From NCBI GenBank assembly GCA_004297305.1, contig SCTR01000007.1, forward strand, positions 25,281 to 89,280: a DNA stretch of 64,000 bases, written 5' to 3'. Below the pieces are notes generated by a model. That model saw only the letters and a list, made by a program, of their open reading frames with translations. It searched no databases and was not told the DNA's origin. This document shows positions 25,001 to 47,321 of this stretch, piece by piece; the stretch's first letter is position 1, and every line of letters starts with the position of its first letter. Source of the DNA: Actinomycetota bacterium (GTDB lineage Bacteria > Actinomycetota > Actinomycetes > S36-B12 > FW305-bin1). The position numbers were made by a program, and so were the translations under genes.

Positions 25001-26210
25001 CGTGAGCCACAACACCATCGGTTTCATGATGGATTGCGACACAACGGGTGTGGAGCCGGACTTCTCGCTGGTGAAGTTCAAGAAGCTCGTCGGCGGCGGT
25101 TCGATGCAGATCGTCAACGCGACGATTCCGCGGGCGTTGCGGCAGCTCGGGTACGCCGAGGAGACCATCGAGGCGATCGTCGAGTACATCGCCGAGCACG
25201 GTCACGTCGTGGACGCGCCCGGCCTGCGGCCGGAGCACTACTCGGTGTTCGACTGCGCCGTAGGAGAACGAGCGATCACCCCGATGGGCCATGTCCGGAT
25301 GATGGCGGCGGTGCAGCCGTTCATCTCCGGTGCCATCTCCAAGACGGTCAACATGCCCGAGTCGTCCACGGTCGACGAGGTGGAGAACATCTACTTCGAG
25401 TCCTGGAAGCTGGGTATCAAGGCGCTGGCGATCTACCGCGACAACTGCAAGGTCGGGCAGCCGCTGTCGGACGCGAAGGCCAAGAAGGCCGACGCCCCGG
25501 TCGAGGTCATCGTGGAGCGCCCGGTTCGCAAGCGGCTGCCGAAGTCGCGGCCGAGCATGACGACGTCGTTCAGCGTCGCCGGTGCCGAGGGATACATGAC
25601 GGCCGGCTCGTACCCGGATGACGGTCTCGGCGAGGTATTCCTCAAACTCGGCAAGCAGGGTTCGACGCTCGCCGGTGTGATGGACGCCTTCTCGATCGCG
25701 GTGTCGATCGCGCTGCAGTACGGCGTCCCGCTGGACGCCTACGTGTCCAAGTTCGTCAACATGCGGTTCGAGCCGGCGGGGATGACGGACGACCCGGACA
25801 TCCGGATGGCGCAGTCGATCATGGACTACATCTTCCGGCGGCTGGCGCTGGACCACCTGCCGTACGAGCAGCGGGCCGGTCTGGGCATCTACACGGCCGA
25901 GGAGCGCACCCGGGCGGTGGAGACCGGGTCGTACGAGACGCCGGCCGAAGACGACGACATGGACGCTCTCGCCCAGTCGGTCCCGGTGGGCAAGGCCGAC
26001 AGCCTGCCGGCTGCCAAGCCTGCGGCCGACCCGGTCACAGCGACCGCTGTCGCTGCCCCGCGGGAGGTCCACTCGTCGGCGGAACTGCTGGAAGTGTTCA
26101 CCGGGACGGCGTCTGACGCTCCGCTGTGCATGACCTGCGGGACGAAGATGCGCCCGGCCGGCAGCTGCTACGTCTGCGAAGGTTGCGGCAGCACCAGCGG
26201 GTGTAGTTAG
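22083..26210 (+). CDS. nrdJ: Vitamin B12-dependent (class II) ribonucleotide reductase NrdJ, interrupted in frame by an intein
   Basis: ATG 22083 follows GAGGAGGA, and the upstream part of ORF 21573.. overlaps nrdR in another frame. Supporting sequence: MTETVTGP...HPYDEVTWERRD...VNASTIVTTKYFRG...NSPVWFNVG...NPCSEY...DCDTTGVEPDF...TVNMPE..., plus the C-terminal Cys tail CMTCGTKMRPAGSCYVCEGCGSTSGCS. Confidence 0.95.
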   Translation: MTETVTGPTAGTGFARAGLALQRLYTTAGTHPYDEVTWERRDVVQTNWKTGETVFEQRAVEFPDFWSVNASTIVTTKYFRGAVGSDVREWSLKQLIDRVVLSYTKAGREHGYFATPADAEIFEHELTWMLLHQVFSFNSPVWFNVGTSAPQQVSACFILAVDDTMDSILNWYREEGLIFKGGSGAGLNLSRIRSSKELLSSGGTASGPVSFMRGADASAGTIKSGGATRRAAKMVVLDVDHPDIVEFIETKVREEDKIRALRDAGYDMDLGGKDITSVQYQNANNSVRVSDEFMRAVEEGGQFGLTARGTGEVLETVDAKQLFRSMAEAAWACADPGIQYDGTINDWHTNPETGRINASNPCSEYMSLDNSSCNLASLNLLKFLTDDDTFDADRFAKAVEFVITAMDISICFADFPTQPIAETTRAYRQLGIGYANLGALLMATGLAYDSDGGRALAGAITSLMTGTAYKRSAELAAIVGPYEGYARNADAHKRVMRKHAAATDSVRSASALDADILTLATKAWADCLAIGEKNGWRNAQASVLAPTGCLTGDTLVTTDRGLMRLSEIGDVWGDKWQDLDLTVMTDEGPKQATKFFVNGEEPTRRITTAGGYTIQGTLAHRIKVVDESTGEWVWKRLADVTAGDLVPMQLGFLVGAEREVPLPVLDQAYYAGDRGIVVPETLQAELAELVGYFMGDGSLHAKGVRLCVADTDLDVVERIRILCKGLFNLEPVVTAQQGYQEVTLQSVRLARWWQAAGFAKDLPGVDHAGKGWTPRVPAAIRETNDAGVYAAFLRGLFEADGSVSAGVPALSTASETFAADLRTMLLALGVPTTTRQTVSGWGGAQYQLRVRNLSHVAQFAETVGFLSDRKNRAMSLLPTQSGNRDRIHLPEPVWRELADRAPVSRELLLQAVRRGQGVARDLAIKVLRETEDPRLSNAMLYLYEEVADNADGGVQPTYDLSVPANVTYVAAGFVSHNTIGFMMDCDTTGVEPDFSLVKFKKLVGGGSMQIVNATIPRALRQLGYAEETIEAIVEYIAEHGHVVDAPGLRPEHYSVFDCAVGERAITPMGHVRMMAAVQPFISGAISKTVNMPESSTVDEVENIYFESWKLGIKALAIYRDNCKVGQPLSDAKAKKADAPVEVIVERPVRKRLPKSRPSMTTSFSVAGAEGYMTAGSYPDDGLGEVFLKLGKQGSTLAGVMDAFSIAVSIALQYGVPLDAYVSKFVNMRFEPAGMTDDPDIRMAQSIMDYIFRRLALDHLPYEQRAGLGIYTAEERTRAVETGSYETPAEDDDMDALAQSVPVGKADSLPAAKPAADPVTATAVAAPREVHSSAELLEVFTGTASDAPLCMTCGTKMRPAGSCYVCEGCGSTSGCS
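23727..25013 (+). mobile_element. Intein (429 codons) with a LAGLIDADG homing-endonuclease domain inside nrdJ
   Basis: The extein junctions read ...SVLAPTG|CLTGDTLVTT...AAGFVSHN|TIGFMMDCDTTG... Cys1, block B GTLAHR (TxxH), two LAGLIDADG motifs (LVGYFMGDGSL, FLRGLFEADGSV) and terminal HN followed by Thr+1 are all present. The length is a multiple of 3. Confidence 0.9.
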
Positions 26211-26255
26211 ACGCTCGCTTGGTTGCTTTGGGACGACGGCGGCAGAGGAGGCCAG

Positions 26256-27362
26256 GTGGAACTCGAGAAGCAGATCCTGGGACGGGCTCGTGAGATCAAG
26301 ACCGACGGATACCCAATGTCGATAGGCGAGGTACTTTCCCTGTACCGAGATGGCGACATTGATATTCATCCGGAGTTTCAGAGGATCTTTCGATGGGATG
26401 AAGACCAGAAGTCGAGGCTAATTGAGTCGATTCTTCTGGGGATACCTATCCCGCCAATATTTGTTTCCCAACGCGATGATGGGGTGTGGGACGTAATCGA
26501 CGGCGTCCAGCGTCTATCGACGGTTCTGGAGTTCGTGGGTGAGTACAAGAATGAAGCTGGACTGAGGACACCCAGTTCGACTCTGCGTAAGACAGAGTAC
26601 TTGCCGGCGCTGGATGGCTGCACATGGGAAAGCGGTACCGACGAGGAGAAGGTGTTCTCCGAACCGCTGCGTAGGGACTTCAAGCGGGCCAAGCTCGAAT
26701 TCCGTATTATTCGTAAAGAATCGGATGCAAACGCAAAGTACGATCTGTTCCAGCGGCTAAACTCGGGTGCTCAACTCTCACCTCAAGAGGCACGAAACTG
26801 CCTGCTCGTAATGATGAATGTTGAGCTGTTCAATCGGGTTGCTTCTTTGTCGCAGCAAGATGAGTTTGTCTCTTGCACGCCACTGTCGGATAGGCAGGAG
26901 GATCAAGCGTACCGGCAAGAACTCGTGCTGAGGTTCTTCTCACAGGCTGATTTCGATAGAGGAGAAGGCCAGCTAGACGTGGAATACGGGGAGTATCTGA
27001 CGAATTGGATGCGACGCAAGGCTGAGGGCCCTTCTGCGGAGTTGAACGACGTGGACTCGGGTCTTTTCGAGTCGTGCTTCCGACTGTTGGGGGGTGCGCT
27101 CGGCGAAGACTCCTTCAGGCGCTGGGATCCGGAACGTGGCGCTCATCTTGGTCCCTTCTCGATTTCGTCGTATGAATTCGTTACTACTGGTTTGGCATCT
27201 AACTTTTCGCGGTGGGTGAGTCGCCCTGACGAATTGACGACGCGTATTCGGGGCACATGGTCCGAGCCAACATTCCGTGATAACTCTGGAAGTGGGATCA
27301 GTCCCAGGCGCCGTGTTCCGAAGCTGGTACATGCGGCCCGGAGATACTTCGCGGAGGGCTGA
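26256..27362 (+). CDS. DUF262 (ParB-like nuclease superfamily) protein
   Basis: ORF 26223..27362; GTG 26256 follows AGAGGAGG. IDIHPEFQRIFRWDEDQKSRLIESILLGIPIPPIF...WDVIDGVQRLSTVLEF is the DUF262 core (FQR..W, DGxQRL). I see no HNH/DUF1524 motif in the C-terminal half. The region is AT-richer than its flanks. Confidence 0.85.
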   Translation: MELEKQILGRAREIKTDGYPMSIGEVLSLYRDGDIDIHPEFQRIFRWDEDQKSRLIESILLGIPIPPIFVSQRDDGVWDVIDGVQRLSTVLEFVGEYKNEAGLRTPSSTLRKTEYLPALDGCTWESGTDEEKVFSEPLRRDFKRAKLEFRIIRKESDANAKYDLFQRLNSGAQLSPQEARNCLLVMMNVELFNRVASLSQQDEFVSCTPLSDRQEDQAYRQELVLRFFSQADFDRGEGQLDVEYGEYLTNWMRRKAEGPSAELNDVDSGLFESCFRLLGGALGEDSFRRWDPERGAHLGPFSISSYEFVTTGLASNFSRWVSRPDELTTRIRGTWSEPTFRDNSGSGISPRRRVPKLVHAARRYFAEG

Positions 27363-27363
27363 C

Positions 27364-28065
27364 GTGAAGGTTCGCTCTGCTGAAGAAGTAGCTGATGCAG
27401 TGGACAACTCACTCGCGTGGCGCAGGATGGAAATGAAGACGCTCGAGAAAGAAGTTCAACGCGCCGCGCAACTTGGTGAAGACAAGCCCGTTTGTAGAGC
27501 CCTTACCCGAAGTTCGCTCGCCGTCCTATATGCCCATTGGGAAGGATTCGTCAGGGATGCATTCGGCGCCTATGTGGACTATATCTCAGCGTCTAAGCCA
27601 AAATTCGCCGAGTTGAACGATGGTTTGCTTCGAGCCGTGGCCAAGGCGCTCCATAGGCGAGTTGCGAATGGAGATCTTGCGGCTCTGCAATCGGTGGCGG
27701 AGGCTGTTCGGCGTCCAAGTGAGGGCCGTGCTCCTATACCTTCTAGGGCAGCAATGGTTGATACACGAGCGAATCTTCGCTTCGAAGTGCTGAAGGAGAT
27801 CTTGGGATCCGTTGGGATGGATTCTGCCGAATTCGAGACCAAGCAGTTATTGATAGACAAGTCTCTTTGTGACGCACGAAACTCAATTGCACACGGGAGA
27901 TATCTTGATCAGGGGAGCGGGCAGTACCTAGAGCTGCAGAAAGAAGTCCTCCACATGATGGAAGAGTTGCGCGACAAGATTGTATTTTGTGCGAGTAGTG
28001 CTTCATATCGCATCCGAGTGCCAGACTCAGTGGAAGGGGCGGATGTGCTGTCTGGTTCGACCTAG
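27364..28065 (+). CDS. HEPN-domain protein (MAE_28990/RiboL-PSP-like), putative RNase partner of the DUF262 protein
   Basis: This is the in-frame part of ORF 27277..28065. GTG 27364 lies 1 nt after the upstream TGA (27360-27362). The sequence has YAHWEGFVRD... and the HEPN Rx4-6H signature CDARNSIAHGRY near the C-terminus. Confidence 0.75.
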   Translation: MKVRSAEEVADAVDNSLAWRRMEMKTLEKEVQRAAQLGEDKPVCRALTRSSLAVLYAHWEGFVRDAFGAYVDYISASKPKFAELNDGLLRAVAKALHRRVANGDLAALQSVAEAVRRPSEGRAPIPSRAAMVDTRANLRFEVLKEILGSVGMDSAEFETKQLLIDKSLCDARNSIAHGRYLDQGSGQYLELQKEVLHMMEELRDKIVFCASSASYRIRVPDSVEGADVLSGST

Positions 28066-28300: not shown

Positions 28301-31300
28301 CTACCCAGGGCCGCCGCCCTCGCTCCATAGCTCTCGCCACACAAACACGTACCGCGTGAGCCGAAAGTCGTCCGTCCCGGTCGCATCGAAGGGTCGCCGC
28401 ACATACCGCAATCGATCCGCCCCCGCGCCCTCAGGCGACACCTCCACGAGCGCCAACCGGTAGTCGTCGCCGAGATTCTTCGCCGTCAGAACCTCGTTGC
28501 GGGTGATGCTGAACTCGTCGGCCCCGGCGATGCGGCCCTTCACCTCGATCCGTATCACCGACCCGTCGACCCGTACCGACCGGACGTCGAAGCCCGGGTT
28601 GTTCGGCGGCATCTCCTCCGGCACCGCGCCCAACTTCCGCTCCGCAGCGAGCACCGCATCCACCGCCCGCCGCTCCACCGCCCGCCGCGCCTCCTCCGAA
28701 GCGGCGAGATCCACCACGGACGCGCCTCGCCACCGGTCGAGCAGTCCTTGCGGAATCACCAGGGCCGCACCGGAGATCACGGGCGGCAGCACCGTCAATG
28801 CGGCGTCGACGTCCAACTCGGCCAGCCGACGCTGCAGCCGCCCCTCAAGGTCACGTGCGCGCCGGTATGCCGTTTCTGGGCGCATCCGCAACTGCCGCCC
28901 TGCCGACTCTTGGTCCAGGAGCAGGGCGTGTTGCCCGTCCCAGTAGTTGATTTCGCTGGTGAGCCGGGCCCGCACGGCGTCTCGGGTCCGCGCGACCGAC
29001 GCCACCACGCGCGTCTCAACGTCGCGGCGGTGGTCGGGCAGCGAGTGCTGCACCGCCCACGCGCGGGCCACGTCTTCCACACCGGCCGTGAGCCACTCCG
29101 CGCCGAGTAGCGACTCCAGCTGGTCACCAGCGGCCGGCTGCCACGGGGCGTAGTCGAGGTACGGCGCAGGTCCGCCAGTCCGCGCAACGCCATCGGCGTC
29201 CAGTTCCACGAAGCCGAAGCGTTTGGACACCGTCCGCGACCGGCCGTCTTTGATCTCCTCGATCGATGCCACCAGCAGCCGCGGCGTGCTCGACAGATCA
29301 TCCGGATCTACTAGGACCGCGCCGTGCTTGAGCAGGCTCGAGTGGTCGTTGACGGTCAGGTCCACGACGGCGTCGAGCAGCGGATGCCCCGGCGCCAGCA
29401 ACTGGGCGACGGGCAACCCTGGCCGGCGTACGTCGTTGCGCTCGAAGCACACCCGTTCATAGCGCGTGAGTACGGCAGCGCCGATTCCAGCCTGCCGGTC
29501 GCGGTCGCGAATTCGTGCCGGGACGTGGGTGATCTCGTGCCGACCGCGTTCGCGAGCGGCAAGCTGCCCGCCCATGCGTTCGAACGCCTCGGCAAAGAAC
29601 GCCCGGATGTAGTGCGGCTGCAATCGCCTGGCCTGCGCCTCCTCGACGCGGCGGCGGACTTCGTCGGGGTCGCTTTGCGCGAGGACGTCGTGTTCGAGTG
29701 CCCGCTCGGCGAGCAGAGCCTCGATTCCCTCGTTGACGGATGCGTCGATGACGCGGTTGAGATGCTCGCGGGTCTCGGGAAGGTCGCCGTACCGGATCGC
29801 TTCGATCAGCAGTTCTCGCAATGGCCGACCCTCGAAGGCGTCGCCGAGCACGTCGAAGACCTTGCCGCCGTAAGCTTCACGCTGCTCGTCGACTTTGGCT
29901 AGCAAGCGCAGGAAGACATCGCCTTCCCGGGTGTCGCGGGCGACGAGGTTCCACAGGTGGCACACCTCGGTCTGGCCGATGCGGTGGATCCGACCGAACC
30001 GCTGTTCGATCTTGTTCGGGTTCCACGGCAGGTCGTAGTTCACCATCAGGTGGGCACGCTGCAGGTTCAGGCCTTCCCCGGCAGCGTCGGTGGCGACGAG
30101 GATGCGCACCTGCGGGTCCGAGGTGAACAGTTCCTGCGCCGTGCGCCGATCCTCCCGACGCACGCCGCCATGAATCGCGACGACGGTTCGGTCGTCGCCG
30201 AGCAACGTGCCGATCCGGTCGACGAGATAGTTCAGCGTGTCTTTGTGTTCGGTGAAGACGATGATCTTCCGTGGTGTGCCGGCGGAGTCGGTGACCATCG
30301 CCTCGTCCAGCAGGATGGTGCGCAGCTCGGTCCATTTGCGGTCGGTGTCGGACTGCCGCACCCGCCGGGCCACTTCGATCAGGTCGTCGAGGACACCGAT
30401 CTCGTGCTGCAGTTCGGTGCGCGTGCGCGCCGCGGTCGCCGCGTCGGTGACGGTGTCCTCGACCTGCTCGACCTCCTCGGCGGTCATGTCCTCCAGTGCG
30501 TCGTCGATGCGACCGACGTCGCGGCCGAGCATCTCGGCCAAGCGATCCCGCAGCGGCGCAGCCGCAGTCGAGCCGTCACGGTCGATCGTCTGTAGCTGGC
30601 GCCCCAATCGGTCGCGCCGCCGCTGCAGGCTGCGCAGGATCGCCTCCGGGCTGGACGCCAGCCGGCGTTGCAGCACCGTGAGCGCGAATCCCACGTTCGT
30701 GCGGCGCCGGTCGCCCTCGCCGAGCGCGTCGGCCCTGCCCATTTCCTCACGGACGTACGCCGTGACGACGTCGTACAGCTCCTTCTCTGCCGCCGACAGC
30801 TCGTACGGCACCGTGGACGCGCGCCGCTCGGGGAAGAGCGGCCGACCGTCCATGGTGAGCAGTTCCTCTTTCACCATGCGGCGCATCAGGTCGCCGGGCT
30901 GTGCGCTGTGCAACCCGTCCCGGAAGCGACCCTCGAAACGGTCCCCGTCCAGCAGCGCGAGGAAGAGCTGGAAGTCCTCCTGCTTGCCTGAGTGCGGCGT
31001 CGCCGTCATGAGCAACAGGTGCCGAGTGACGCGGCCGAGCGATCGCCCGAGTTCGTAGCGCTTGGTGGTCGTCAGTTCGTTGCCGAAGTAGTGCGCGGAC
31101 ATGCGGTGCGCTTCGTCGACGACGACGAGGTCCCAGTCGCTGCCGTCGAGCTGGCCGCGCAGATCATCGTTGCGCGAGAGCTGGTCCATCCGGGCGATGA
31201 GCAGCGGGTGCTGGTCGAAGACGTTCGACCCCAACGTGGTGGCGTCGATCATCGGGCGGGTCAGCACCTCGAAGTCGAGACCGAACTTGTCGTGCAGCTC

Positions 31301-31840
31301 GTCTTGCCACTGGTCGACCAGGGATCCAGGCGCCACGATCAGGCAACGGGCGAGGTCGCCACGCAGCCGGAGCTCCTTGATGTAGAGGCCGGCCATGATG
31401 GTCTTGCCGGCGCCGGGATCGTCGGCCAAGAGGAAACGCAGCGGGCTGCGGGGCAGCAACTCGCCGTAGACGGCGGTGAGCTGGTGTGGCAGCGCTTCCA
31501 ATTCGGACGTGGACACCGCGACCATGGGGTCGAAGAGCGCGGCGTACCGGATCCGCAACGCCTCCGCCGCGAGCCGCCACAGCGCCCCGTCGGCATCGAA
31601 GGCGCGGGTGGTCCCGGCGGATTCCAGCCGCAGCCGAGGCTCGTCGTCCCGCCCGAGCATCGCCTGGCCGACATCGCCGTGACCGTCGCGGTAGGTGACT
31701 TCGAGGAACTGCGTCCCTACCCACCGGGCGGCGACGATGTCGACCACTCCGGCGGTCGCGACACCGGCGGCACGAACGCCCGGCACGAGGTTCTCCAGCG
31801 CTGCGGCGAGTGCGCGTTCGATGGGCGATTCGGCGTCCAC
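28301..31840 (-). CDS. SNF2-family (SF2) helicase with a C-terminal DUF3883 / restriction-endonuclease-like domain
   Basis: LLADDPGAGKTIMAG, DLVVVDEAHRMS, LLLMTATPHSGKQEDF and NYDLPWNPNKIEQRFGRIHRIGQ (SNF2 motifs I-VI). The C-terminus reads LGAVPEEMPPNNPGFDVRSVRVDGSVIRIEVKGR...FSITRNEVLTAKNLGDDYRLALVEV (DUF3883 pattern GxD..S...IEVK...T.NE). Confidence 0.9.
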   Translation of the reverse strand: MDAESPIERALAAALENLVPGVRAAGVATAGVVDIVAARWVGTQFLEVTYRDGHGDVGQAMLGRDDEPRLRLESAGTTRAFDADGALWRLAAEALRIRYAALFDPMVAVSTSELEALPHQLTAVYGELLPRSPLRFLLADDPGAGKTIMAGLYIKELRLRGDLARCLIVAPGSLVDQWQDELHDKFGLDFEVLTRPMIDATTLGSNVFDQHPLLIARMDQLSRNDDLRGQLDGSDWDLVVVDEAHRMSAHYFGNELTTTKRYELGRSLGRVTRHLLLMTATPHSGKQEDFQLFLALLDGDRFEGRFRDGLHSAQPGDLMRRMVKEELLTMDGRPLFPERRASTVPYELSAAEKELYDVVTAYVREEMGRADALGEGDRRRTNVGFALTVLQRRLASSPEAILRSLQRRRDRLGRQLQTIDRDGSTAAAPLRDRLAEMLGRDVGRIDDALEDMTAEEVEQVEDTVTDAATAARTRTELQHEIGVLDDLIEVARRVRQSDTDRKWTELRTILLDEAMVTDSAGTPRKIIVFTEHKDTLNYLVDRIGTLLGDDRTVVAIHGGVRREDRRTAQELFTSDPQVRILVATDAAGEGLNLQRAHLMVNYDLPWNPNKIEQRFGRIHRIGQTEVCHLWNLVARDTREGDVFLRLLAKVDEQREAYGGKVFDVLGDAFEGRPLRELLIEAIRYGDLPETREHLNRVIDASVNEGIEALLAERALEHDVLAQSDPDEVRRRVEEAQARRLQPHYIRAFFAEAFERMGGQLAARERGRHEITHVPARIRDRDRQAGIGAAVLTRYERVCFERNDVRRPGLPVAQLLAPGHPLLDAVVDLTVNDHSSLLKHGAVLVDPDDLSSTPRLLVASIEEIKDGRSRTVSKRFGFVELDADGVARTGGPAPYLDYAPWQPAAGDQLESLLGAEWLTAGVEDVARAWAVQHSLPDHRRDVETRVVASVARTRDAVRARLTSEINYWDGQHALLLDQESAGRQLRMRPETAYRRARDLEGRLQRRLAELDVDAALTVLPPVISGAALVIPQGLLDRWRGASVVDLAASEEARRAVERRAVDAVLAAERKLGAVPEEMPPNNPGFDVRSVRVDGSVIRIEVKGRIAGADEFSITRNEVLTAKNLGDDYRLALVEVSPEGAGADRLRYVRRPFDATGTDDFRLTRYVFVWRELWSEGGGPG

Positions 31841-32001
31841 AACACCCCCGGTCTCGGCGTACGGCGATCTACCAGGTGGCAGGTTCCCACAGCGGGCGCT
31901 CGGAGTCTCCGCGGCAACTCGGGCCCCTCGCTCCGCCGGAGATCCATGTGGCTGTGTCAGACGGGACTGCCAGGGTGCCCCAGATCCAATAGAGGGGCGG
32001 C

Positions 32002-32478
32002 GTGGAGGCTGATCCGACCTGGCTCGTGATTGTGACGACGACAGTCGGCCCGGCTGCTGCGGTCATCGTTGCGGTTATCGCGGCTAGCGTCGCCGTCGGG
32101 CTGTGGCGACGCGAGGAGAGTTTCCGTATGGTCCGCTGGGCAGCCGAACAGGCCGCTCAGGAACGCCGATCCGACCACGACGGACCAGCAGTCGGGACGG
32201 CCGTCCTCGACTACCTCACGGCAACGACCCCCGGATCGCGGCGGTGGTGGGAGCCCAGGCGCCGTCGCCGCGTGCTGGACGCAGGGGGCGCTGCGCTCGC
32301 CGAGGTCGTCAGCGCAGCGCTCGTGGAGGAGCTGCGGTCGCGTGTGGCGGTGGCTGCCGCGGCCGACACCTCCGTGGTCGTCACGTCCGACGCCTTCCCT
32401 GCCGTCCCTGGTCAAGGTCCATACACTGTTCGATCGGAACCCGTGCCCGGGGAGGCGACCGATGACGACGACACCTGA
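32002..32478 (+). CDS. Hypothetical membrane-anchored protein (158 aa) embedded between the helicase and the methylase
   Basis: GTG 32002 follows AGAGGGG. The N-terminal hydrophobic helix is WLVIVTTTVGPAAAVIVAVIAASVAVGLW, and third-codon positions are mostly G/C, as in real genes here. The competing minus-strand ORF (31957..32526) is R/G/P-rich shadow. I recognise no homology. Confidence 0.45.
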   Translation: MEADPTWLVIVTTTVGPAAAVIVAVIAASVAVGLWRREESFRMVRWAAEQAAQERRSDHDGPAVGTAVLDYLTATTPGSRRWWEPRRRRRVLDAGGAALAEVVSAALVEELRSRVAVAAAADTSVVVTSDAFPAVPGQGPYTVRSEPVPGEATDDDDT

Positions 32479-32647
32479 CGTGATCGCCGTGACGCCGACG
32501 GAGATGCGGGCCGCCAAGGTGGTCATCAGGTTGATGCGCCGACGCGGCGAGGCGCCCAGTCAGGCGTTGCTCGCCATCGCGAACGCGACGGTCGAGCCCA
32601 CGCGGATCTCGGATGCCGCTGCCCGGGTCCCCGCTGACGAGGTCTGA
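32462..32647 (+). CDS. Hypothetical small protein (61 aa), overlapping the previous ORF by 17 nt
   Basis: From ATG 32462, within ORF 32069..32647: MTTTPDVIAVTPTEMRAAKVVIRLMRRRGEAPSQALLAIANATVEPTRISDAAARVPADEV. The overlap suggests translational coupling. I recognise no family. Confidence 0.35.
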   Translation: MTTTPDVIAVTPTEMRAAKVVIRLMRRRGEAPSQALLAIANATVEPTRISDAAARVPADEV

Positions 32648-32828
32648 CGCGCATGGTCAGACGGTCCCTCGGCGACCTGTCACGCAGGGGCCCCGCGAAG
32701 GGACCGCGCAACGTGTCTGTCCGACGCGCCATGATGTGCCGTCAAGAGCGGCGACGGAGTCTGTGGACTGAGAGCCGCATGGGGTGATCGCCGGCCTGGA
32801 CGTCCGGCGTGACGAGGGGACCGAGCGG

Positions 32829-35668
32829 ATGGCCACGACGGCGGACGTGCCAAGGCGGAAGCTGATCGAGGTGTCGTTGCCGCTGGAGGACATCAACCGC
32901 GAGTCCGCCCGGGAGAAGTCCATCCGGCACGGCCACCCGTCCACGCTGCACCTGTGGTGGTCAAGGAAGCCGACGGCTGCAGCACGAGCCGTGCTCTTCG
33001 CCCAACTCGTGGACGACCCGTCGTCGCACCCGGACCGCTTCCCGACGCCGGAGGCTCAGGCCGCCGAGCGGGAGCGGCTGCACGACCTGATTCGGCGACT
33101 CGTCGTCTGGGAAAACGTCGGTGACGAGCGGCTCCTGCGCGAGGCCCACGAGGAAATCTTGAAATCCAGCGGGGGGGGGCCAGCAGTTTGCCGGTCATCC
33201 TCGACCCGTTCGCGGGCGGCGGGTCTATCCCGCTGGAGGCTCAGCGGCTCGGCCTTGAGGCCCATGCCAGCGACCTGAACCCCGTCGCTGTCCTCATCAA
33301 CAAGGCACTCATCGAGATCCCGCCCCGCTTCGCCGGCCGGTCTCCCGTCTTTCCCGGCGCCGCCGAGTCGCGGCTCGGCGACTGGCCCCGCGCGACCGGG
33401 CTCGCCGAGGACGTCCGCCGGTACGGCGGCTGGATGCGCGAGCGCGCCCAGGAACGGATCGGGCATCTCTACCCGCCGGCGAAGCTGCCGGACGGATCGA
33501 CCGCCCCCGTCATCGCCTGGATCTGGGCCCGGACAGCGACGTGTCCCAACCCCGCCTGCGGGATCGAAATGCCGCTCACGAGTAAGTGGCGGCTGGGCAA
33601 GAAGAAGGGAAAGGAGGCGTACGTCGTCCCCTCCGTCGTCCCCGACCCGTCAGTCGCGGCAGGGCGCCGAGTCGTCTACACGATCGGGCACGATCCCGCC
33701 CAGGCGCCGACCAAGGACACGGACGGGACGATGTCGGGCCGTCGCGGCGCCCTTTGTGTCGCCTGCGGTACAGCCGTGCCCACTGATCACATCAAGGCCG
33801 AAGGCGTCGCGGGGCGTATGGGCGCGCAGCTACTCGCCATCGTCGCGGAAGGCGCTCGGCAACGGATCTACCTGCCGCCGAATGCAGAACACATCGCCGC
33901 GGCGGACGTGGCCCGTCCGGATGACGTGCCCGAGGGCGAAATCGCCACCAACCCAAGGTGGTTTTCGACGCCTGCATTTGGGATGACCGAGTTTGCGGAT
34001 CTTTTCACAAACCGGCAGTTGGTGGCGTTGACGACATTCAGCGACCTCGTCGGCGAGGCACGGGAACAAGTTCTTGCCGATGCCCTCGCCTCCGGCCTCC
34101 CTGAAGGCACCCGCCTAGAAGCCGGCGGCTCCCACGCCGCCGCCTACGCCGACGCCGTGGCAACCTACCTAGCCATGACCGTAAGCCGCCTCGCTGATCT
34201 CGGCAATTCTCTCTGTCGTTGGGAACCCGTCGCCGAATGTCCCCGTCAACTCTTCGGCCGCCAGGCCGTTGCCATGGTGTGGGACTATGCGGAGGGCAAT
34301 TCGCTCGGCGAATCGTCCGGCTCCTGGCAGGTGCTGACCGGCGGCACGCAACGCGCCTTCGCCAGTGCAGCGTTCTCGCGGGCCAATGTGTCTGCGCATG
34401 CAACTCAAGGAGATGCGCTGGAGGCGGTTTCGCGGAAGCAGGTCGTCATATCGACCGATCCACCCTACTACGACAATATCGGGTACTCCGACCTTTCGGA
34501 CTTCTTCTACATTTGGTTGCGACGAACGTCCGGCGATCAGTTCCCGGCTCTGTTCGGAACCCTGCTGGTGCCGAAGGCAGACGAGTTGGTGGCGAACCCG
34601 TATCGCCACGGTGGTCGCGACACGGCGGAGCAATTCTTCGAGACGCGGTTTCGTGATGTGTTCACTCGAGCACGTGATCATGCAAGTCCGGATATGCCCA
34701 TTGCCGTGTACTACGCCTTCAAGCAAGCTGAGCTCAAGACTGACGGCGTTTCATCGACGGGATGGGCCACGATGCTCGAGGGCATCATCGGCGCAGGCTG
34801 GTCGGTCACTGGCACGTGGCCGCTACGCACCGAGACATCGAGCCGTTTGACTGCCCAGGGAACCAACGCCCTCGCATCTTCCATCGTCCTCGCGCTTCGT
34901 CCCCGCCACGAGGACGCTCAGGCCACGACCCGTCGCGGCTTCCTCGCCGCGCTGAAGGCCGAGTTGCCGCATTCGCTCCGGGAGATGCAGCAGGGCGCGA
35001 TCGCACCCGTCGACTTGGCCCAAGCCACCATCGGTCCAGGCATGGCCGTATTCTCCCGCCACAGCCGAGTCGTCGAAGCAGACGGCTCGGCAATGTCAGT
35101 GAAGACGGCGCTCGCGCTCATCAACCACGCGCTCGACGAGGTGCTGGCGGAGCAGGACGGCGACCTCGACGTCGACACCCGGTTCGCGCTCAAGTGGTAC
35201 GAGCAGTATGGCTTCGGCCTCGCCAAGGGCAAGTTCGGCGAGGCCGACGTCCTGGCTCGTGCGACGAACACGTCCGTCGAAGGACTGAAGCGTGGCGGCA
35301 TTCTGGCCTCGGGCGGAGGAGACATTCGCCTCCTGGCGCCGACAGATCTGGACGCCTCCTGGGACCCCCTGGCCGACGACCGGATCAGCGTGTGGGAAGC
35401 CACGATGCATCTGGCTCGGGTCCTCGACACCGGCGGCGTCGAGGCGGCCGCGGCGCTCATTCCGAAGGTGGGCCAGCGGATCGACCTTGACGCGGTCCAG
35501 CTGATCGCGTACCGGCTTTACGAGCTGTCACAAGCCAACCGGCCCGCGGATGCGTTGCTGTTCAACGCGCTCGGTACTTCATGGGGTGATCTTGCATCCA
35601 CCCGGCGTACCGACCCGGCGCCGACGGTGACGGCACCGACACTCAACTACGGCGACGAGGATGAGTAG
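32829..35668 (+). pseudogene. DUF1156-type N6-adenine DNA methyltransferase, reading frame broken at a G9 tract (frameshifted, possibly phase-variable OFF, or a homopolymer sequencing error)
   Basis: The N-terminal piece runs from ATG 32829 to stop 33278 ([48 protein letters not shown]...). It continues in the +1 frame as ORF 33188..35668 ([44 protein letters not shown]..., catalytic STDPPYYDNIGYSDLSDFFYIWL). The two pieces join seamlessly if the G run at 33171-33179 has 10 or 7 G instead of 9. Confidence 0.85.
33171..33179. repeat. Homopolymeric G9 tract at the methyltransferase frameshift site
   Basis: The sequence reads ...atccagc GGGGGGGGG ccagcag... Confidence 0.95.
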
Positions 35669-35749
35669 TCACTTCTTACCCGAGCCGCCACCATGCGGCG
35701 CGGCGAGTTCCACCACCATTGACGAGCTGGACGCAAGGGGGATCACGCC

Positions 35750-38700
35750 GTGGCGCTGAGCAACCGGGACAGGATCGATCGTGGGCTTCAGGCGCTCGTC
35801 CTCGGGGTGCGGCCGTTCGTCGACCAGCACATGGGCGCCGCCGCCAAAGGCGCCGACTGGGTCGCGCTGCTCACTGCTCGCGACGCCGCGAAGCACGGCA
35901 CGGTCAAGAAGAACTCACCGGACGACCCGCGCTTCCTCCTGAAGATCTTGACCGAAGAATGGCGCGCCTTCGGCCAGGAACTCTCGCGCGTCGACCAGTC
36001 CTATGCCTCCGAGTTGCGCGACGTCGGCAATCGGCTCGCCCACGGCGAGTCGTTCAGCGCGGACGACACCACCCGCGCACTGGACACCATCGAGCGGTTG
36101 CTTACGTCGGTGGGCGCGCCCGACCAGGCCGACGCCGTCCGGACATTGCGGCTGGACCATCAGCGCGACGTCTTCGAGGCGCAGACCAAGAAGACCGTGC
36201 GCGCCGCAGTCGGCACCGTCAACACGCCCGGGACCGGCCTGAAGCCGTGGCGCGAGGTCATCACGCCGCATCCCGACGTCACAGCGGGACAGTTCAACGC
36301 CGCCGAGTTCGCCGCCGACCTGCATCAGGTATCGACGGGGGAGACGACACAGCAGGAGTACGCCGATCCGCGGGAGTTCTTCGCGCGCACGTACCTCACC
36401 GAAGGGCTCAAGGACCTGCTCGGGCGGGCGGTCCAGCGGTTGAGCGGTGACCTCAACGCGTCCCCGGTTGTCAATCTGCAGACCAACTTCGGTGGCGGCA
36501 AGACCCACTCGATGCTCGCCGTCTACCACCTGGTGGCCGGCCTGCCGGCCAGTGCCTATCCGCAGCCGGTCCAGGAAATCGTCGGGCCGGTGAAACTCGA
36601 CGAACTCAACGTCCGGCGGGTGACCCTTGTCGGGACGCATCTCGCCCCGAACCAGCCACGGGTCAAGGAGGACGGCACTGCCGTTCGTACCCTTTGGGGA
36701 GAGCTCGCCTGGCAGCTCGGCGGACGTACGGCGTACGACGTCGTCGCCGACGCTGACCGGTCGGGAACTCCGCCGGGAGATGCACTGACCGGGCTGCTGC
36801 GCGAGCACGCACCGGTGCTCATCCTTATCGACGAGTGGGTGGCCTACGCCCGGGGACTCAGCGATGACGAGGATCTCGCCGGCGGGCGTTTCGACAACCA
36901 GTTCACGTTCGCCCAGCACCTGACCGAGGCGGTCAGCGCGATCCCCGGAGCGATGCTGCTGGTCTCTATCCCGGCGTCTGACACCTTGGACGCTGGCGGT
37001 GGCGGGTCGGCGATCGAGGTCGGTGGTGAGCGGGGTCGTCGCGCCCTCATGGCGCTGCAGAACGTGGTCGGCCGCAAGGCCGACCACTGGCGGCCGGCGA
37101 GCAGCATCGAGTCGTTCGAGATTGTCCGACGCCGGTTGTTCGCCGAGCCCGATGCCGCGGCGCGCACGGAGATCGCTGCGGTCGCGCGGCAGGTCGTCCA
37201 GTTCTACCGGGAGCACCACGGTCAGTTCCCCCGCGAGGCCGAGGAGTCGGCGTACGAGGACCGCCTCAAAGCGGCCTACCCCATCCACCCCGAGCTCTTC
37301 GACCGCCTCTACCACGACTGGTCGACGCTCGAACGGTTCCAGCGAACGCGGGGCGTGCTGCGGCTCATGTCGATCGTCATCCACGAGCTGTGGCGGTCCG
37401 GCGACGCGAGCCCGCTCATCACCCCGGGCACGATCCCGTTGCACGCGCCGCTTGTGGCCAGCGAGCTGACCAACTATTTGCCGGATGCGTGGCGCCCGAT
37501 CATCGACAGCGACATCGACGGCGAGGGCTCCGATGCCGTGCGGATCGATGCGAGTCGCCCCGGCACGTTCGGCGCCCGGTCATTGACCCGCCGGATCGCT
37601 CGGACGATCTTCCTCGACACGGCGGCCACGCTGAACAGCGACCACCGCGGCGTGGAGCGACCGCGGATCTGGCTCGGGGTCGCGATCCCGGGTGACACGC
37701 TCGGCAACTTCGGCTCCGCGCTGGAACTGCTCAGTCAGGAGTCGACGTACCTGTACTCCGAAGCAGCGCGTTACTGGTTCTCAACCGCGGCGTCGGTCAC
37801 CCGCACCGCCGCCGACATTGCCGACCGGCTTCGTGAGGAGCCCGAGGCGGTGTGGAAGGAGATCCTCGATCGGGTGAAGGTGCTCGTCCGTGACCGGGGT
37901 GGATTCGCCGGTGTCCACGTGGGCCCGGTGTCGTCGGCGGACGTTCCGGACCTGGAGGAGGTGCGGCTTGTCGTCGTACACCCCCGGATGCGCCACGCGA
38001 AGAACGAGAAGGAGTCCGAGGCGCTCCGCTTCGCCCGCGATGCCACGTTGCGAGTCGGATCCGCACAGCGGCGCAACCGGAACATGGTCGTCTTCGTCGC
38101 TGCCGACGGGCAGCGGTACGAGGAGCTCGACAGTGCGGTCCGGGCCTTCCTGTCCTGGAAGCAGATTGCCGACCAGGCCACGGAAATGGACCTGACGCCC
38201 AGCCAGAAGGCCCAGGCCGATAGTCGTCGGCGGCAGGCTGACGAGGATGCCAGGAACCGACTGGCGGCGACGTACACGTGGACCTTCGTCCCGACGCAGG
38301 ATCCACAGTCGCCACCTGAGGTCGCAGTGGTACCGGTGAAGGACGGCCAGGGCGGTCTGGCCGAGCGGGTGACCACCAAGCTCGTACGGGAAGGTCTGCT
38401 GGCAACGACTTACGGTGCCTTCTCGGCGCGGATGGCGCTCGATGGGCCGCTGAGCACGGCTTGGGCAGCGGGTCACGTCTCCGTGGGGGAGCTGTGGTCG
38501 CTCTATACGCAGTATCCGTATCTGGACCGCCTTCGCGATCGGTCCGTCCTGGAGTCGGCTCTGCTCAGTCCGCCGATTCTGTGGGAACAGGAAGGCTTCG
38601 CCTGGGCCGCTTCGGTGGATGACGGTGGACGGTACGTCGGGCTGGTCCTGCCCAGTGACGAGACCGTACCGAGCTCATTGCCGGATTCCTGGCTTGTCGT

Positions 38701-39094
38701 GAAGCCAGGGCGGGCCTTGCGGCAGCGAGCAGCGGACAAGGCAGCTGCGGACAACACCGTCGCCGATCCGATAGGGCTGTCCGGCTCCGATGACACCGCG
38801 GACGGGCTTGAGGTGGCGGGACTCTCGGCAGCCGCCGAGGCCGAGCCGGGACGCTCGCTCTCGGTCAGTCGTTTCTTTGGCTCCGTCGGCGTCGATCCTG
38901 AGCGATACAACCGGGACTTCGCCCGCGTGGGGCAGGAGATCTTGCAGCACCTCGCTGCTGTCCCGGGAGTTGAGCTGACGGTCACGATCGAGATCCACGC
39001 CACGGCGACCGAGGGCTTCAGCCCTGAGACAGTCCGCGTTGTGGGGGAAAATGCAACGACCTTGAAGTTCAAGGCAAGCGGATTCGATGACTAA
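35750..39094 (+). CDS. Swt1-like HEPN domain fused to a DUF499 P-loop ATPase
   Basis: The N-terminus has DPRFLLKILTEEWRAFGQEL...ELRDVGNRLAHGESFS (HEPN R-x4-H). It is followed by PWREVITPHPDV...NLQTNFGGGKTHSMLAVYHL (DUF499 Walker A) and a long C-terminal region. Confidence 0.85.
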   Translation: MALSNRDRIDRGLQALVLGVRPFVDQHMGAAAKGADWVALLTARDAAKHGTVKKNSPDDPRFLLKILTEEWRAFGQELSRVDQSYASELRDVGNRLAHGESFSADDTTRALDTIERLLTSVGAPDQADAVRTLRLDHQRDVFEAQTKKTVRAAVGTVNTPGTGLKPWREVITPHPDVTAGQFNAAEFAADLHQVSTGETTQQEYADPREFFARTYLTEGLKDLLGRAVQRLSGDLNASPVVNLQTNFGGGKTHSMLAVYHLVAGLPASAYPQPVQEIVGPVKLDELNVRRVTLVGTHLAPNQPRVKEDGTAVRTLWGELAWQLGGRTAYDVVADADRSGTPPGDALTGLLREHAPVLILIDEWVAYARGLSDDEDLAGGRFDNQFTFAQHLTEAVSAIPGAMLLVSIPASDTLDAGGGGSAIEVGGERGRRALMALQNVVGRKADHWRPASSIESFEIVRRRLFAEPDAAARTEIAAVARQVVQFYREHHGQFPREAEESAYEDRLKAAYPIHPELFDRLYHDWSTLERFQRTRGVLRLMSIVIHELWRSGDASPLITPGTIPLHAPLVASELTNYLPDAWRPIIDSDIDGEGSDAVRIDASRPGTFGARSLTRRIARTIFLDTAATLNSDHRGVERPRIWLGVAIPGDTLGNFGSALELLSQESTYLYSEAARYWFSTAASVTRTAADIADRLREEPEAVWKEILDRVKVLVRDRGGFAGVHVGPVSSADVPDLEEVRLVVVHPRMRHAKNEKESEALRFARDATLRVGSAQRRNRNMVVFVAADGQRYEELDSAVRAFLSWKQIADQATEMDLTPSQKAQADSRRRQADEDARNRLAATYTWTFVPTQDPQSPPEVAVVPVKDGQGGLAERVTTKLVREGLLATTYGAFSARMALDGPLSTAWAAGHVSVGELWSLYTQYPYLDRLRDRSVLESALLSPPILWEQEGFAWAASVDDGGRYVGLVLPSDETVPSSLPDSWLVVKPGRALRQRAADKAAADNTVADPIGLSGSDDTADGLEVAGLSAAAEAEPGRSLSVSRFFGSVGVDPERYNRDFARVGQEILQHLAAVPGVELTVTIEIHATATEGFSPETVRVVGENATTLKFKASGFDD

Positions 39095-39142
39095 TAGCGC
39101 GCCACAGTGTCGACGATGTGACGGCTGCACGAGGGGGAGGGC

Positions 39143-40682
39143 ATGGACGAAACCGCTCGGTTCTTGATCAGGTCAATACTGGCGGAGAACCCAGGACTGT
39201 CCGCGTTCGAGATATCGACGCAGCTCGCCGCCCACGGTATCCGGCTGAGGTCGCACCAGATCAAGCTGGAGCTGGAGGGCATGACAGATGCGACCGCCGC
39301 GCGCCGGCCTGATCATCGACAGGCCTGGTCGGTGCGGTCTGGCGCAGCGGGAATCCAACCGCATCACGACTCGCTGAATGATGATTGGGAGGTCACCTAT
39401 CGCGGACCGGAGTTGCGCCGCTGGCAGATCCGAGCGCTCCGCTCCTGGCGGGCGGCGGACCGGCGCGGAGTTATCGAGGCGATCACCGGTACGGGGAAGT
39501 CCCTTGTCGGCATCAAGGCGGTCGAGGAGGTCGTGCGCGACGGAGGGCGGGCATTGGTGGTCGTGCCCGGCGTCGCCCTCCTTCAGCAATGGCGACGCGG
39601 GCTCGAGGCGGAAATTCGCGGCATCCGGATCGCAGCGCTCGGGGACGGAGCGTCGGCGACGTTCTACGACAATGACGTCCTCATCGCATCCGTCCAATCC
39701 GGGTATCGCCATCGACCCGTCCCTCCCGGACTGGGTCTGCTGGTCGCCGACGAGGTGCATAGGTATGGCGCGCCCACGTTCGCACAGGTGCTGTCAGATC
39801 GATTCGATCGACGGTTAGGGCTGACCGGGACCTACGAGCGGATTGACGACGGAATCACCACCTGGCTCGATCCGTACTTTGGTGGAGTGGCATTCGAGTA
39901 TCGATACGCAGATGCCCTTCTCGACAAGGTCGTGGCACCGTTCCACCTCGCTATGGTCGGCGTCAGTTTCACGGACATCGAGCGATCGGAGCACGACCGC
40001 TTCGACAAGGAATGTAAGGACACCGCCACGGCTCTCATCGAGATGCACGGATATCCAAGGGCACCATGGAGTGCGTTCTTTGAGGCCGTCCAATCGGGGG
40101 CCGCCAGTCCAGATTGGAACGAAGCTCAGATCTGTCGACGGCACCTCGCGGCGTTCATGCGACGAAAGGAGCTGCTGGCCGCCGCCGTGGCCAAGTCCCG
40201 CATCCTCAAGGAAATCGGCATCGCTTGGATCGAGGCCGGTCAGGCATTGGTTTTCACTGAGACGGTGTCAGCAGCCAAGAACGCCGCCGCCGCCATCGGC
40301 GAATTCACCCCGGCCGCAGCTCTCACCGGCGACATAACTCGGCGGAGCCGAGAGATGGCGCTTCGGCGCAGGGCGAGTCCAGGTTCTGACCGCTCCGCGG
40401 CTCCTGGACGAAGGTATCGACGTCCCCGAAGCCAGCCTGGCGGTCATCGTCGCAGCCAGCCGGACGCGACGCCAGATGGTGCAGCGCATGGGGCGGGTTA
40501 TCAGGCTGAAGGACGACGGCCGGCCTGCTCGCGTGCTGGTCCTCTACGTGAAGGACACGCCGGAGGACCCTGTCCTTGGCGGGCACGAGGCCTTCCTCGC
40601 AGAGGTCATTCCACATGCACAAAGTACAGTCACCTTTGACGAGAATATGGTTCGGAGCGTCCAAGCGTGGTTGAGGAGCTGA
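39143..40682 (+). pseudogene. wHTH + SF2 (ResIII/XPB-like) DEAD/DEAH helicase, frameshifted between motifs IV and V
   Basis: ORF 39143..40639 carries RRWQIRALRSW...AITGTGKSLVG, LLVADEVHRYG and GLTGTYER, then degenerates into R/P/G-rich sequence after ...AALTGDIT. The +1 frame, open from 40335 to stop 40682, reads ...FGAGRVQVLTAPRLLDEGIDVPEASLAVIVAASRTRRQMVQRMGRVIRLK..., which is helicase motifs V and VI. Confidence 0.8.
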
Positions 40683-47310: not shown

Positions 47311-47321
47311 GCCCAAGCCGA

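Follow-up and report, generated by a model that had tools for sequence, protein, structure and literature searches.

The methylase gene (hmaB) of an Hma-type defence locus was probably inactivated recently, a reading to which we assign a probability of about 55%, by an indel (net +8 nt) at, or directly downstream of, a run of nine G residues (G9) that is specific to this lineage. The gene lies in a stretch of 64 kb from a metagenome-assembled actinobacterial genome, hereafter termed the window, and we judge it to be a recent pseudogene or an OFF allele.

The locus is an Hma, or Type-1 BREX-related (BR), defence system, centred on a DUF499 protein; Hma is the Type-1 BR system (PMC12839542). Its three core genes are clustered within positions 28301-39094, as in other systems of this type, and sequence identifies HmaA, a DUF1156 N6-adenine methyltransferase (HmaB, once its frame is repaired), and a DUF499 ATPase. 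The hmaA gene (28301-31840, minus strand, divergent from hmaB) encodes an intact 1179-aa SNF2 helicase with a C-terminal NOV_C/DUF3883 (PD-(D/E)xK) nuclease domain. The hmaC gene (35750-39094, plus strand) encodes an intact 1114-aa protein in which an N-terminal HEPN_Swt1 domain is fused to a DUF499 AAA+ ATPase, the commonest Hma variant (1370 of 2446 taxa; PMC12839542, PMC11232893). An earlier note on this DNA, made from the sequence alone, had described both of these genes as intact, and this is what we observe. The PADLOC profiles were matched over their full length, with 1454.9 bits for HmaA (residues 15-1153 against profile positions 4-1149 of 1176), 1097.1 bits for repaired HmaB in a single stretch (profile positions 8-954 of 967), and 885.8 bits for HmaC. 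Pfam matches were DUF1156 in HmaB, SNF2-rel_dom, Helicase_C, and NOV_C in HmaA, and HEPN_Swt1 (residues 11-122) and DUF499 in HmaC.

The window departs from the typical system in three respects: hmaB as encoded is frameshifted, hmaA is divergent, and the 1-kb spacer between hmaA and hmaB holds two small ORFs of 158 and 61 aa (32002-32647, plus strand). Neither small ORF matched a Pfam family or had a tblastn counterpart in 80 related loci. An hmaA divergent from hmaBC is common only to the closest relatives (L002 and L083) and otherwise occurs in 1 of 66 loci; as the closest relatives share it, the arrangement is no sign of decay. Inversion scars around hmaA were considered as a mark of decay and rejected, since only weak inverted repeats were found and the closest relatives are divergent as well. 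MANTIS (Gao_RL; Type-2 BR) is a sister family that also has a DUF499 ATPase, an N6-adenine methylase, and a helicase-nuclease. The window differs from it in that the NCBIfam Type-2 equivalogs scored far under their cut-offs (119.6 vs 1000 bits and 146.8 vs 1200 bits) and neither the Type-2 marker, a DUF3780/MtsB-like gene, nor a PLD nuclease was detected at the locus.

The G9 run occupies positions 33171-33179 (plus strand), is flanked by C on both sides, and is the longest homopolymer of the window. In the frame of the 5' part of hmaB (frame A) it reads GGG GGG GGG (Gly-Gly-Gly), which aligns to the G/D-G-N (once G-G-G) loop positions of homologues. The frame A fragment (32829-33278, plus strand) starts at ATG 32829, although a mechanical ORF begins at GTG 32784, contains the DUF1156 region at 32877-33086, remains homologous up to the Pro codon at 33180-33182, and continues as an out-of-frame tail to a TGA at 33276-33278. 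The remainder of the gene lies in frame B (33191-35668, plus strand), in which the second conserved Pro codon (CCG, 33191) is followed by motif I (DPFAGGG, 33203-33223), motif IV (DPPY, 34457-34468), and a TAG stop at 35668; gene callers place the start of this ORF at TTG 33188 (826 aa, P0001). A tblastn search with the repaired protein gave two HSPs that abut at the tract and differ in frame, where each of the 80 other loci gave a single HSP, and the GC3 signal changes frame at approximately 33180. Translation and tblastn thus confirm the break that the earlier note had placed at G9, after the N-terminal DUF1156 part and ahead of motif I, and translation likewise confirms the stop at 33278. 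Its arithmetic also holds: from ATG 32829, G10 restores one ORF of 946 aa and G7 one of 945 aa, and G8, G9, and G11 stop early. PGAP lists no protein under the locus tag that should separate TAK69427 from TAK69428, consistent with the gene having been called a pseudogene.

Comparison with homologues indicates that the length of the tract, which the earlier note took to be the lesion, probably is not. The loop preceding motif I, K-S-T-[G/D]-G-N-P-P-[A/P]-ILDPF, has a fixed length in 34 proteins and approximately 65 genome loci. Counted from W94, ILDPF lies at a distance of 27 residues in 183 homologues and of 28 in another 19, and no insertion that lengthens the loop was found among these roughly 200 sequences. 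In the window, the same distance is 30 residues with G10, 29 with G7, and 27 if 8 nt are removed. Frame A matches the homologues through the first Pro (CCA) and frame B from the second Pro (CCG), with 8 extra nucleotides in between, for which the best-fitting placement is AGCAGTTT at 33182-33189 (plus strand). Their removal (del8) leaves GGG GGG GGG CCG CCG GTC, encoding GGGPPV, a loop of the family's modal length (GGNPPA or GGGPPA in homologues); a natural GGGPPA-ILDPF occurs in one homologue (P0022, locus L090), coded GGC GGC GGC CCG CCC. The loops produced by G10 and G7 are 3 and 2 residues longer, respectively, occur in none of the approximately 200 homologues, and lack a near-invariant Pro. 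An HMM of 34 homologues gave del8 1684.5 bits, some 10 bits above G7 (1674.9) and G10 (1673.9), and when 293 distinct single-indel repairs were scanned, del8 at 33182/33183 ranked first and G10 63rd. Because the loop length is fixed and del8 scores best, G9 most likely encodes three in-frame Gly residues and the lesion is most likely the net +8 indel.

The exact position of the 8 nt is ambiguous within approximately 33173-33190. Deletions that overlap the tract, such as 33175-33182, score only 4 bits lower, so the insertion may have brought in some of the G residues of the run. A 15-mer around the site is unique in the window even when up to 2 mismatches are allowed, and neither a local direct or inverted repeat that could have supplied the 8 nt nor a target-site duplication of the flanks was found. 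The rare codons AGT and TTG were considered as a means of dating the insertion and dropped, as the flanking homologous codons GAA, TTG, AAA, and CCA are also rare. A search of 5.8 billion clustered proteins gave no relative above 72-73% identity over the full length or 85% over the N-terminal 233 residues, and all matches to both queries carry the canonical loop. With the nearest relative at approximately 72%, the branch on which the change took place cannot be divided further.

The break nevertheless is no more than 12 nt away from the G9, the one long homopolymer of the window, and slips of one nucleotide in such a tract are orders of magnitude commoner than 8-nt insertions, so involvement of the tract has to be weighed. 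The earlier note proposed a phase-variable ON/OFF switch, in which G10 (or G7) would be the ON state, G9 would be OFF through slippage, and the population would toggle both methylation and defence; in a weaker form, the +8 insertion came first and slippage to G10 acts as a reversible suppressor. The uninterrupted ORFs obtained with G10 and G7, which are the part of the proposal that stands, speak for it, as does the absence of other decay in hmaB. However, neither the length nor the sequence of the loop in the ON protein would be matched by any homologue, the near-invariant Pro would be lost, and an in-frame 9-nt (or 6-nt) insertion would be required in addition to the slip. Neither a G10 or G7 allele nor an identical full-length protein was found in the 5.8 billion proteins. 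A second assembly (GCA_040959485.1, contig JBFOMI010000905.1) matches at every one of 20,237 bases, those of the G9 among them, although it may derive from the same reads; both assemblies thus have the same tract length. We consider a switch unlikely, though a serious candidate.

The frequency of the run was assessed from composition and from related loci. Dinucleotide shuffles gave 1.68 G9 or C9 runs per 64 kb, with at least one run in 70 of 100 shuffles, and composition alone would allow a G9. Real sequence is poorer in long runs than the shuffles: the window has eight G6 runs, one C6 run, and no runs of 7 or 8, and homologous high-GC loci totalling 438 kb contain a single run of 9. GGG accounts for 21.5% of Gly codons, making three in succession an event of approximately 1%, and none of the 19 other Gly-Gly-Gly triplets in the window is coded in this way. 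That the G9 is the outlier among the window's homopolymers, with three rare GGG codons where a relative has GGC, therefore counts in favor of a switch. The tract itself is absent from the orthologues compared. In 80 genome loci, hmaB contains no run of at least 9 nt (the maximum is 8, found once and elsewhere in the gene) and no frameshift. JGI metagenome contigs gave no matches to a run of at least 8 G placed no more than 24 nt ahead of ILDPFAGG in its commonest high-GC codings, nor to the exact 24-mer upstream of the tract, which was used to look for variants of the same strain. Of the features of a contingency gene, hmaB thus has a homopolymer of potentially mutable type inside its reading frame but shows no recurrence of it in orthologues.

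The earlier note had further held that slippage of this kind would be unusual for a high-GC actinobacterium, which published precedents contradict. According to PMC4365076, which cites Sumby & Smith 2003, pglX of Streptomyces coelicolor, the methylase of a BREX type 2 (Pgl) system, carries a poly-G tract that is G8 when ON and G7 when OFF and switches at a rate of 1e-2 to 1e-4. G-tract phase variation of a defence methylase is already known in high-GC actinobacteria, and pglX resembles hmaB in that the poly-G lies inside a BREX-family methyltransferase gene and a change in its length shifts the frame. The two cases differ in that alleles and rates have been measured for pglX, whereas the window shows one length, its slippage alleles would have a non-canonical loop, and an 8-nt indel fits better. 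Homopolymer phase variation is also well documented in Mycobacterium tuberculosis (PMC10334774, PMC6667613), and actinobacterial NucS repair leaves indels uncorrected (PMC8228993). The 7C tract of glpK and other M. tuberculosis cases share with the window G/C homopolymer indels in an actinobacterium lacking MutS/L and have ON and OFF states (PMC6667613, PMC10334774, PMC8228993), but they rest on population sequencing and phenotypes and concern metabolic or virulence genes, not defence methylases.

An artefact of sequencing or assembly, in which the true sequence is in frame (for example, a G10 miscalled as G9) and hmaB is intact, appears improbable. Homopolymers are classic sites of indel errors, the source is a metagenome-assembled genome, the agreement of the second assembly carries less weight if it shares its reads with the first, and an unrelated long-read assembly that contains an hmaB family member (L089) shows many such breaks. 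In this window, however, the other long genes are unbroken and the G6 runs break no frames, and a Logan-derived record contains the same 826-aa ORF, a record from which the tract length is not directly readable. The N-terminal fragment was absent as a called protein from the protein collection searched. The nature of the difference also argues against an error, since correction to G10 does not give a family-like loop and removal of the 8 nt, which are not a homopolymer, does; an 8-nt insertion is atypical of sequencing errors.

Expression of a functional methylase despite the break, through either of two routes, is highly improbable. In the first route, the 826-aa catalytic part would be translated separately from TTG 33188, with the G9, located 8 nt before this codon, acting like a Shine-Dalgarno sequence, and would associate with the DUF1156 fragment. 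The hma genes of this locus do have ribosome-binding sites of the GGGGG type, spaced 6-9 nt from the start codon, which G9-N8-TTG mimics, and TTG 33188 is the start chosen by gene callers. Split methyltransferases with overlapping ORFs, such as M.AquI, exist. Nevertheless, a split hmaB occurs in 0 of 80 related loci, and a start codon at such a spacing is expected by chance in approximately 10% of cases. In the second route, -1 ribosomal or transcriptional slippage would join the frames, and a -1 slip on G GGG GGG would allow perfect re-pairing of the tRNA, but its product would be of the G10 type with a non-canonical loop. RNA folds downstream of and around the tract are not unusually stable (z = -0.5 and +0.23, respectively), and no relative has the site; a programmed ribosomal frameshift was rejected on these grounds. 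An AlphaFold2 model (mean pLDDT 63.9, pTM 0.41, and pLDDT below 50 across 116-190 and 514-558, the very regions that matter here) was too poor to define a domain boundary, and no PDB sequence was matched in a profile search.

Apart from this site, hmaB shows no further decay. No second stop or frameshift occurs in its 2.8 kb, and at otherwise invariant columns it carries 4 unique substitutions, one of which is an artefact of the G10 reading, where homologues carry 0 to 15; approximately 300 columns are invariant across all 35 aligned sequences, a set to which this sequence necessarily belongs. Viewed as a pseudogene, hmaB therefore combines a frame that is disrupted relative to intact homologues with a lack of added lesions or relaxed constraint, and it would, judging from these comparisons, be a young one. 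For the favored history, an inactivating net +8 indel, we propose a functional ancestor in which three Gly residues were coded GGG GGG GGG with the G9 in frame. An insertion of 8 bases between the two conserved Pro codons, probably in a single event, would then have put motif I and all that follows it in the -1 frame. What remains would be an N-terminal product of 149 aa (164 aa if GTG 32784 is taken as the start), and full-length methylase would no longer be made.

The earlier note had asked whether loss of the methylase would expose the cell to its own effectors, and by analogy with related systems the loss is likely harmless. Loci with hmaA but without hmaB make up 14.7% of hmaA loci, and HmaA alone is not toxic in E. 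coli (PMC11232893). In BREX/Pgl and MANTIS systems, restriction also depends on the methylase to recognize its sites, and deletion of the MANTIS methylase abolished restriction without toxicity (10.64898/2026.09.23.753747), which makes that knock-out a model for an hmaB null. Extrapolating from these systems, methylation and methylase-dependent restriction would most likely both be off in the window without autoimmunity, and HmaA may keep some methylase-independent activity. The safety of a methylase-OFF state in BREX-like systems, as reported in the MANTIS preprint, would equally suit a phase-variable gene.

If the tract does switch, pglX-type phase variation would extend from Streptomyces to the Hma/Type-1 BR family, and the two states would provide a natural ON/OFF pair for finding the methylation motif of the system. 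Under either reading the concept is already established and the host is an uncultured metagenome-assembled genome, so the practical value is limited. A more general lesson is that the mere presence of a homopolymer beside a frame break does not prove the run to be the lesion, and that a comparison of loop length among homologues can discriminate. If hmaB is instead a young knock-out, it would be one more natural loss of hmaB with intact hmaA and hmaC, and would fit the idea that a BREX-related methylase is needed for restriction and can thus be lost safely. Truncations of HmaB on long contigs were traced in one case to the contig end, in another to an error-ridden long-read assembly, and in a third to a real IS disruption. 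IS-split hmaB genes, natural loss-of-function alleles like that of the window, were present in a set of 19 actinobacterial metagenome contigs and are a further sign that loss of the methylase is tolerated; the loci shown (L085-L087) each retain a called hmaA or hmaC gene next to hmaB. In these alleles a DDE transposase element is inserted, whereas the window has a small indel beside a homopolymer.

A run of nine Gs (G9) occupies positions 33171–33179, with a C on either side, within the DUF1156 N6-adenine methylase gene hmaB. The 5′ reading frame of the gene (frame A, plus strand) opens at GTG 32784, with a likely true start at ATG 32829, runs out of frame past the tract, and ends at TGA 33276–33278; the 3′ reading frame (frame B), shifted by −1 relative to frame A, is open to TAG 35668. 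When the gene was rebuilt from ATG 32829, a G10 allele gave a 946-aa ORF and a G7 allele a 945-aa ORF, and early termination was obtained with G8, G9, and G11. A tblastn search of the window with the repaired protein split into two HSPs, one per frame, with the tract as their common boundary, and GC at third codon positions shifts frame at ~33180. The description in the earlier note, that G9 breaks the methylase frame with a stop at 33278 and that G10 or G7 would give a single ORF, is therefore accurate, and the frame break lies at most 12 nt from G9.

The methylase belongs to an Hma defense system whose other genes were found at full length using PADLOC and Pfam, as had been claimed for the helicase-nuclease and the HEPN-ATPase. 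HmaA, the SNF2 helicase-nuclease (28301–31840, minus strand), scored 1454.9 bits with PADLOC and matched the Pfam families SNF2, Helicase_C, and NOV_C. HmaC, the HEPN and DUF499 ATPase (35750–39094), scored 885.8 bits and matched HEPN_Swt1 and DUF499, and the repaired HmaB scored 1097.1 bits in a single stretch spanning profile positions 8–954 of 967 and matched DUF1156. Hma is the PADLOC name of what is now also termed a Type-1 DUF499-centred BREX-related (BR) system, the commonest form of which has an ATPase with HEPN fused (PMC12839542). NCBIfam equivalogs of the Type-2 (MANTIS/Gao_RL) proteins scored far under their cut-offs, consistent with the Type-1 assignment. In the source metagenome-assembled genome, labelled "Actinomycetota bacterium" and carrying EPO13_ locus tags, HmaA and HmaC are TAK69425.1 and TAK69428.1, and the locus tag expected for hmaB has no protein accession, suggesting that the gene was probably called a pseudogene by PGAP.

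The proposal that tract length is itself the cause of the break fared less well: G10 and G7 do reopen the frame, but removal of 8 nt restores a loop (the segment before methylase motif I) that fits the family better. In 34 full-length homologues (63–72% identical) and ~65 genome loci, this segment reads EIL-K-S-T-[G/D]-G-N-P-P-[A/P]-ILDPFAGGG and has a fixed length. The spacing between the VVWEN Trp, which is invariant, and ILDPF was 27 residues for 183 homologues and 28 for another 19, with no insertions lengthening the loop among them. Frame A follows the family through K-S-S-G-G-G-P, the Pro being CCA 33180–33182, and frame B follows it from P-V-I-L-D-P-F, the Pro being CCG 33191–33193, with 8 extra nt between the two Pro matches. 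Where a relative 72% identical (L082) has AAG TCG ACC GGC GGC AAC CCG CCG GCG ATC CTC GAC, the window has AAA TCC AGC GGG GGG GGG CC[A GCA GTT T]G CCG GTC ATC CTC GAC. Removal of AGCAGTTT (33182–33189) with G9 kept, a repair termed del8, yields GGG GGG GGG CCG CCG GTC, or GGGPPV, at the modal length of 27, whereas the loop is 30 residues long with G10 and 29 with G7 and its near-invariant Pro is replaced by ASSL. Scored with an HMM of the 34 homologues, del8 reached 1684.5 bits, compared to 1674.9 for G7 and 1673.9 for G10. When 293 distinct single-indel repairs from 33150 to 33215 were scanned, del8 at 33182/33183 ranked first and G10 63rd, and 8-nt deletions made up all of the top four and seven of the top twelve. 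The reconstructed loop is a real family variant, as one homologous protein (P0022) naturally has STGGGPPAILDPF, encoded by the homopolymer-free codons GGC GGC GGC CCG CCC. These comparisons point to a G9 that encodes three in-frame glycines and a net +8-nt indel that most likely breaks hmaB. The 8-nt placement is ambiguous within ~33173–33190, since a deletion that overlaps the tract costs only 4 bits, and the insertion may therefore have brought in part of the G run. We thus favor, at a probability of roughly 0.55, a young loss-of-function allele of hmaB arising from a net +8-nt indel that adjoins, or partly falls within, an in-frame G9 specific to the lineage.

On composition alone G9 is unremarkable, as dinucleotide-preserving shuffles gave 1.68 G9/C9 runs per 64 kb. 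Long runs are strongly depleted in real sequence: the window holds eight G6 runs, one C6 run, none of 7 or 8, and G9 as its one run of 9, and 438 kb of high-GC homologous loci hold a single run of 9. Of the Gly codons in the window genes, 21.5% are GGG, so its use three times in succession is a ~1% event, found in none of the 19 other Gly-Gly-Gly triplets in the window. G9 is an outlier tract. Positions 33152–33182 also contain a cluster of genome-rare codons at otherwise conserved residues (GAA, TTG, AAA, GGG three times, and CCA), for which relatives use GAG, CTC, AAG, GGC, and CCG.

An outlier tract made of rare codons, a frame reopened by G10 or G7, and an otherwise intact hmaB would suit a tract-length switch proper, or reversible suppression by G10. 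Both the Hma system and the switching concept were already known, and direct precedent exists in high-GC actinobacteria. According to passages of PMC4365076 citing Sumby & Smith 2003, pglX of S. coelicolor toggles between G8 (ON) and G7 (OFF) at a rate of 1e-2 to 1e-4; like hmaB it carries a G tract in a high-GC actinobacterium, and its product is the methylase of Pgl, a system of the BREX family. M. tuberculosis makes wide use of homopolymer tracts (PMC10334774, PMC6667613), and the NucS pathway, the actinobacterial replacement of MutS/L, leaves indels uncorrected (PMC8228993). With these precedents, the earlier view that phase variation would be unusual for such an organism is not right. However, any ON allele produced by slippage would carry a loop without parallel in the family, and the orthologue comparison that had been suggested uncovered no shared tract: across 80 species-representative loci, no hmaB is frameshifted and no run in the gene reaches 9 (the longest, of 8, occurs once, elsewhere in the gene). 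A search of JGI metagenome contigs for at least 8 G in the 24 nt preceding ILDPFAGG, in its commonest high-GC codons, matched none, and the protein collection contains neither a G10 or G7 allele nor an identical full-length protein. A rare 8–9-nt insertion beside the tract is common to the switch and the loss-of-function reading, so co-location favors neither over the other. We judge switching unlikely, while granting it appreciable weight.

Apart from the lesion, hmaB has no second stop or frameshift, and motif I (33203–33223) and DPPY (34457–34468) are both present. About 300 alignment columns are invariant across all 35 sequences, the window hmaB included; at otherwise invariant columns it has four unique substitutions, one an artefact of the G10 reading, and the homologues have 0 to 15. 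As the gene is otherwise clean, its inactivation is either recent or reversible. That the break is a sequencing or assembly artefact is improbable, given that the other long genes of the window are all unbroken and that 20.2 kb of a second NCBI assembly, site included, match at 100% identity; the assembly as a whole is not error-prone. In a related locus on a 713-kb long-read contig (ENA ERZ10645735 contig_7417), hmaA, hmaB, and hmaC are each split into many short ORFs, the mark of uncorrected long-read indel errors and a warning when tallying "frameshifted" defense genes from metagenome assemblies.

Expression despite the break, through a split gene or slippage, has a very small probability. 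GGGGG-type Shine-Dalgarno-like runs lie 6–9 nt before the starts of the hma genes and the next downstream gene (31841–31866, 35725–35749, 39118–39142), a layout mimicked by G9, 8 nt, and TTG 33188, so separate translation of the 826-aa catalytic fragment is conceivable, with this mimicry as the one point in its favor. Programmed frameshifting is unsupported because the RNA structure at the tract is ordinary (z = −0.5 and +0.23) and the site is not conserved in relatives. Other explanations take up the remainder of the probability.

The loss of hmaB would most likely silence the methylation-dependent arm without autoimmunity, by analogy with several systems. In MANTIS, a sister Type-2 BR system, every deletion of the ATPase, co-regulator, or methylase ended restriction without toxicity, as the methylase supplies the sequence recognition for cleavage (10.64898/2026.09.23.753747), and in Pgl/BREX a contracted pglX tract inactivates Pgl, according to a passage of PMC4365076. 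HmaA by itself protected E. coli against T4 without toxicity, and hmaB is absent from 14.7% of hmaA loci (PMC11232893); HmaA could possibly retain some independent activity here. Nineteen metagenome contigs carry an hmaB interrupted by a DDE-transposase IS, with hmaA or hmaC still called alongside in each locus shown; in three (JGI metagenomes 3300013772, 3300039203, and 3300039109), an inserted DDE_Tnp_1 gene separates 244-aa and 697-aa parts. The identical truncated HmaB on all 19 contigs marks a natural knock-out that has spread through a population.

In the window, hmaA is divergent from hmaBC, an arrangement otherwise seen in one of 66 other loci (65 are co-directional). It is also present in L002 and L083, the closest relatives, whose hmaB is intact, which makes it a lineage trait rather than a sign of decay. 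The ~1-kb hmaA–hmaB spacer contains two small ORFs (32002–32478 and 32462–32647) with no family match and no tblastn counterpart in 80 loci. The system lies within a defense island downstream of lexA (19319–20083, minus strand) and nrdJ (21573–26210, plus strand), which encodes a 1545-aa class II (B12-dependent) ribonucleotide reductase bearing an intein with a LAGLIDADG_3 homing-endonuclease domain; lexA and a LysM protein gene are just upstream of nrdJ. Between nrdJ and hmaA, a gene for a 379-aa GmrSD_N/NsnA-like protein and, overlapping it, one for a 262-aa HEPN protein of the MAE_28990/RiboL-PSP type occupy 26223–28065 (plus strand) at 55.8% GC, compared to 68.9% for the window, and look like a separately acquired defense module. 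Directly 3′ of hmaC, a 498-aa ResIII-type helicase-like protein (39143–40639, plus strand) matches PbeA and dnd_restrict_1 only partially and has no tblastn counterpart in the 80 related loci. A 1267-aa protein (43702–47505, minus strand) with a weak PD-(D/E)XK match, an RNase_H_2-like domain, and an SF1 helicase (AAA_11/AAA_12/AAA_30) may be a further defense or repair gene at the island edge. In Actinoplanes sp. RD1, a single 17.7-kb contig (NZ_JAUQWH010000179.1) carries two hmaB homologues, with identities of 57% and 49% to the query, which suggests that Hma-type systems lie there in tandem or adjacent to each other.
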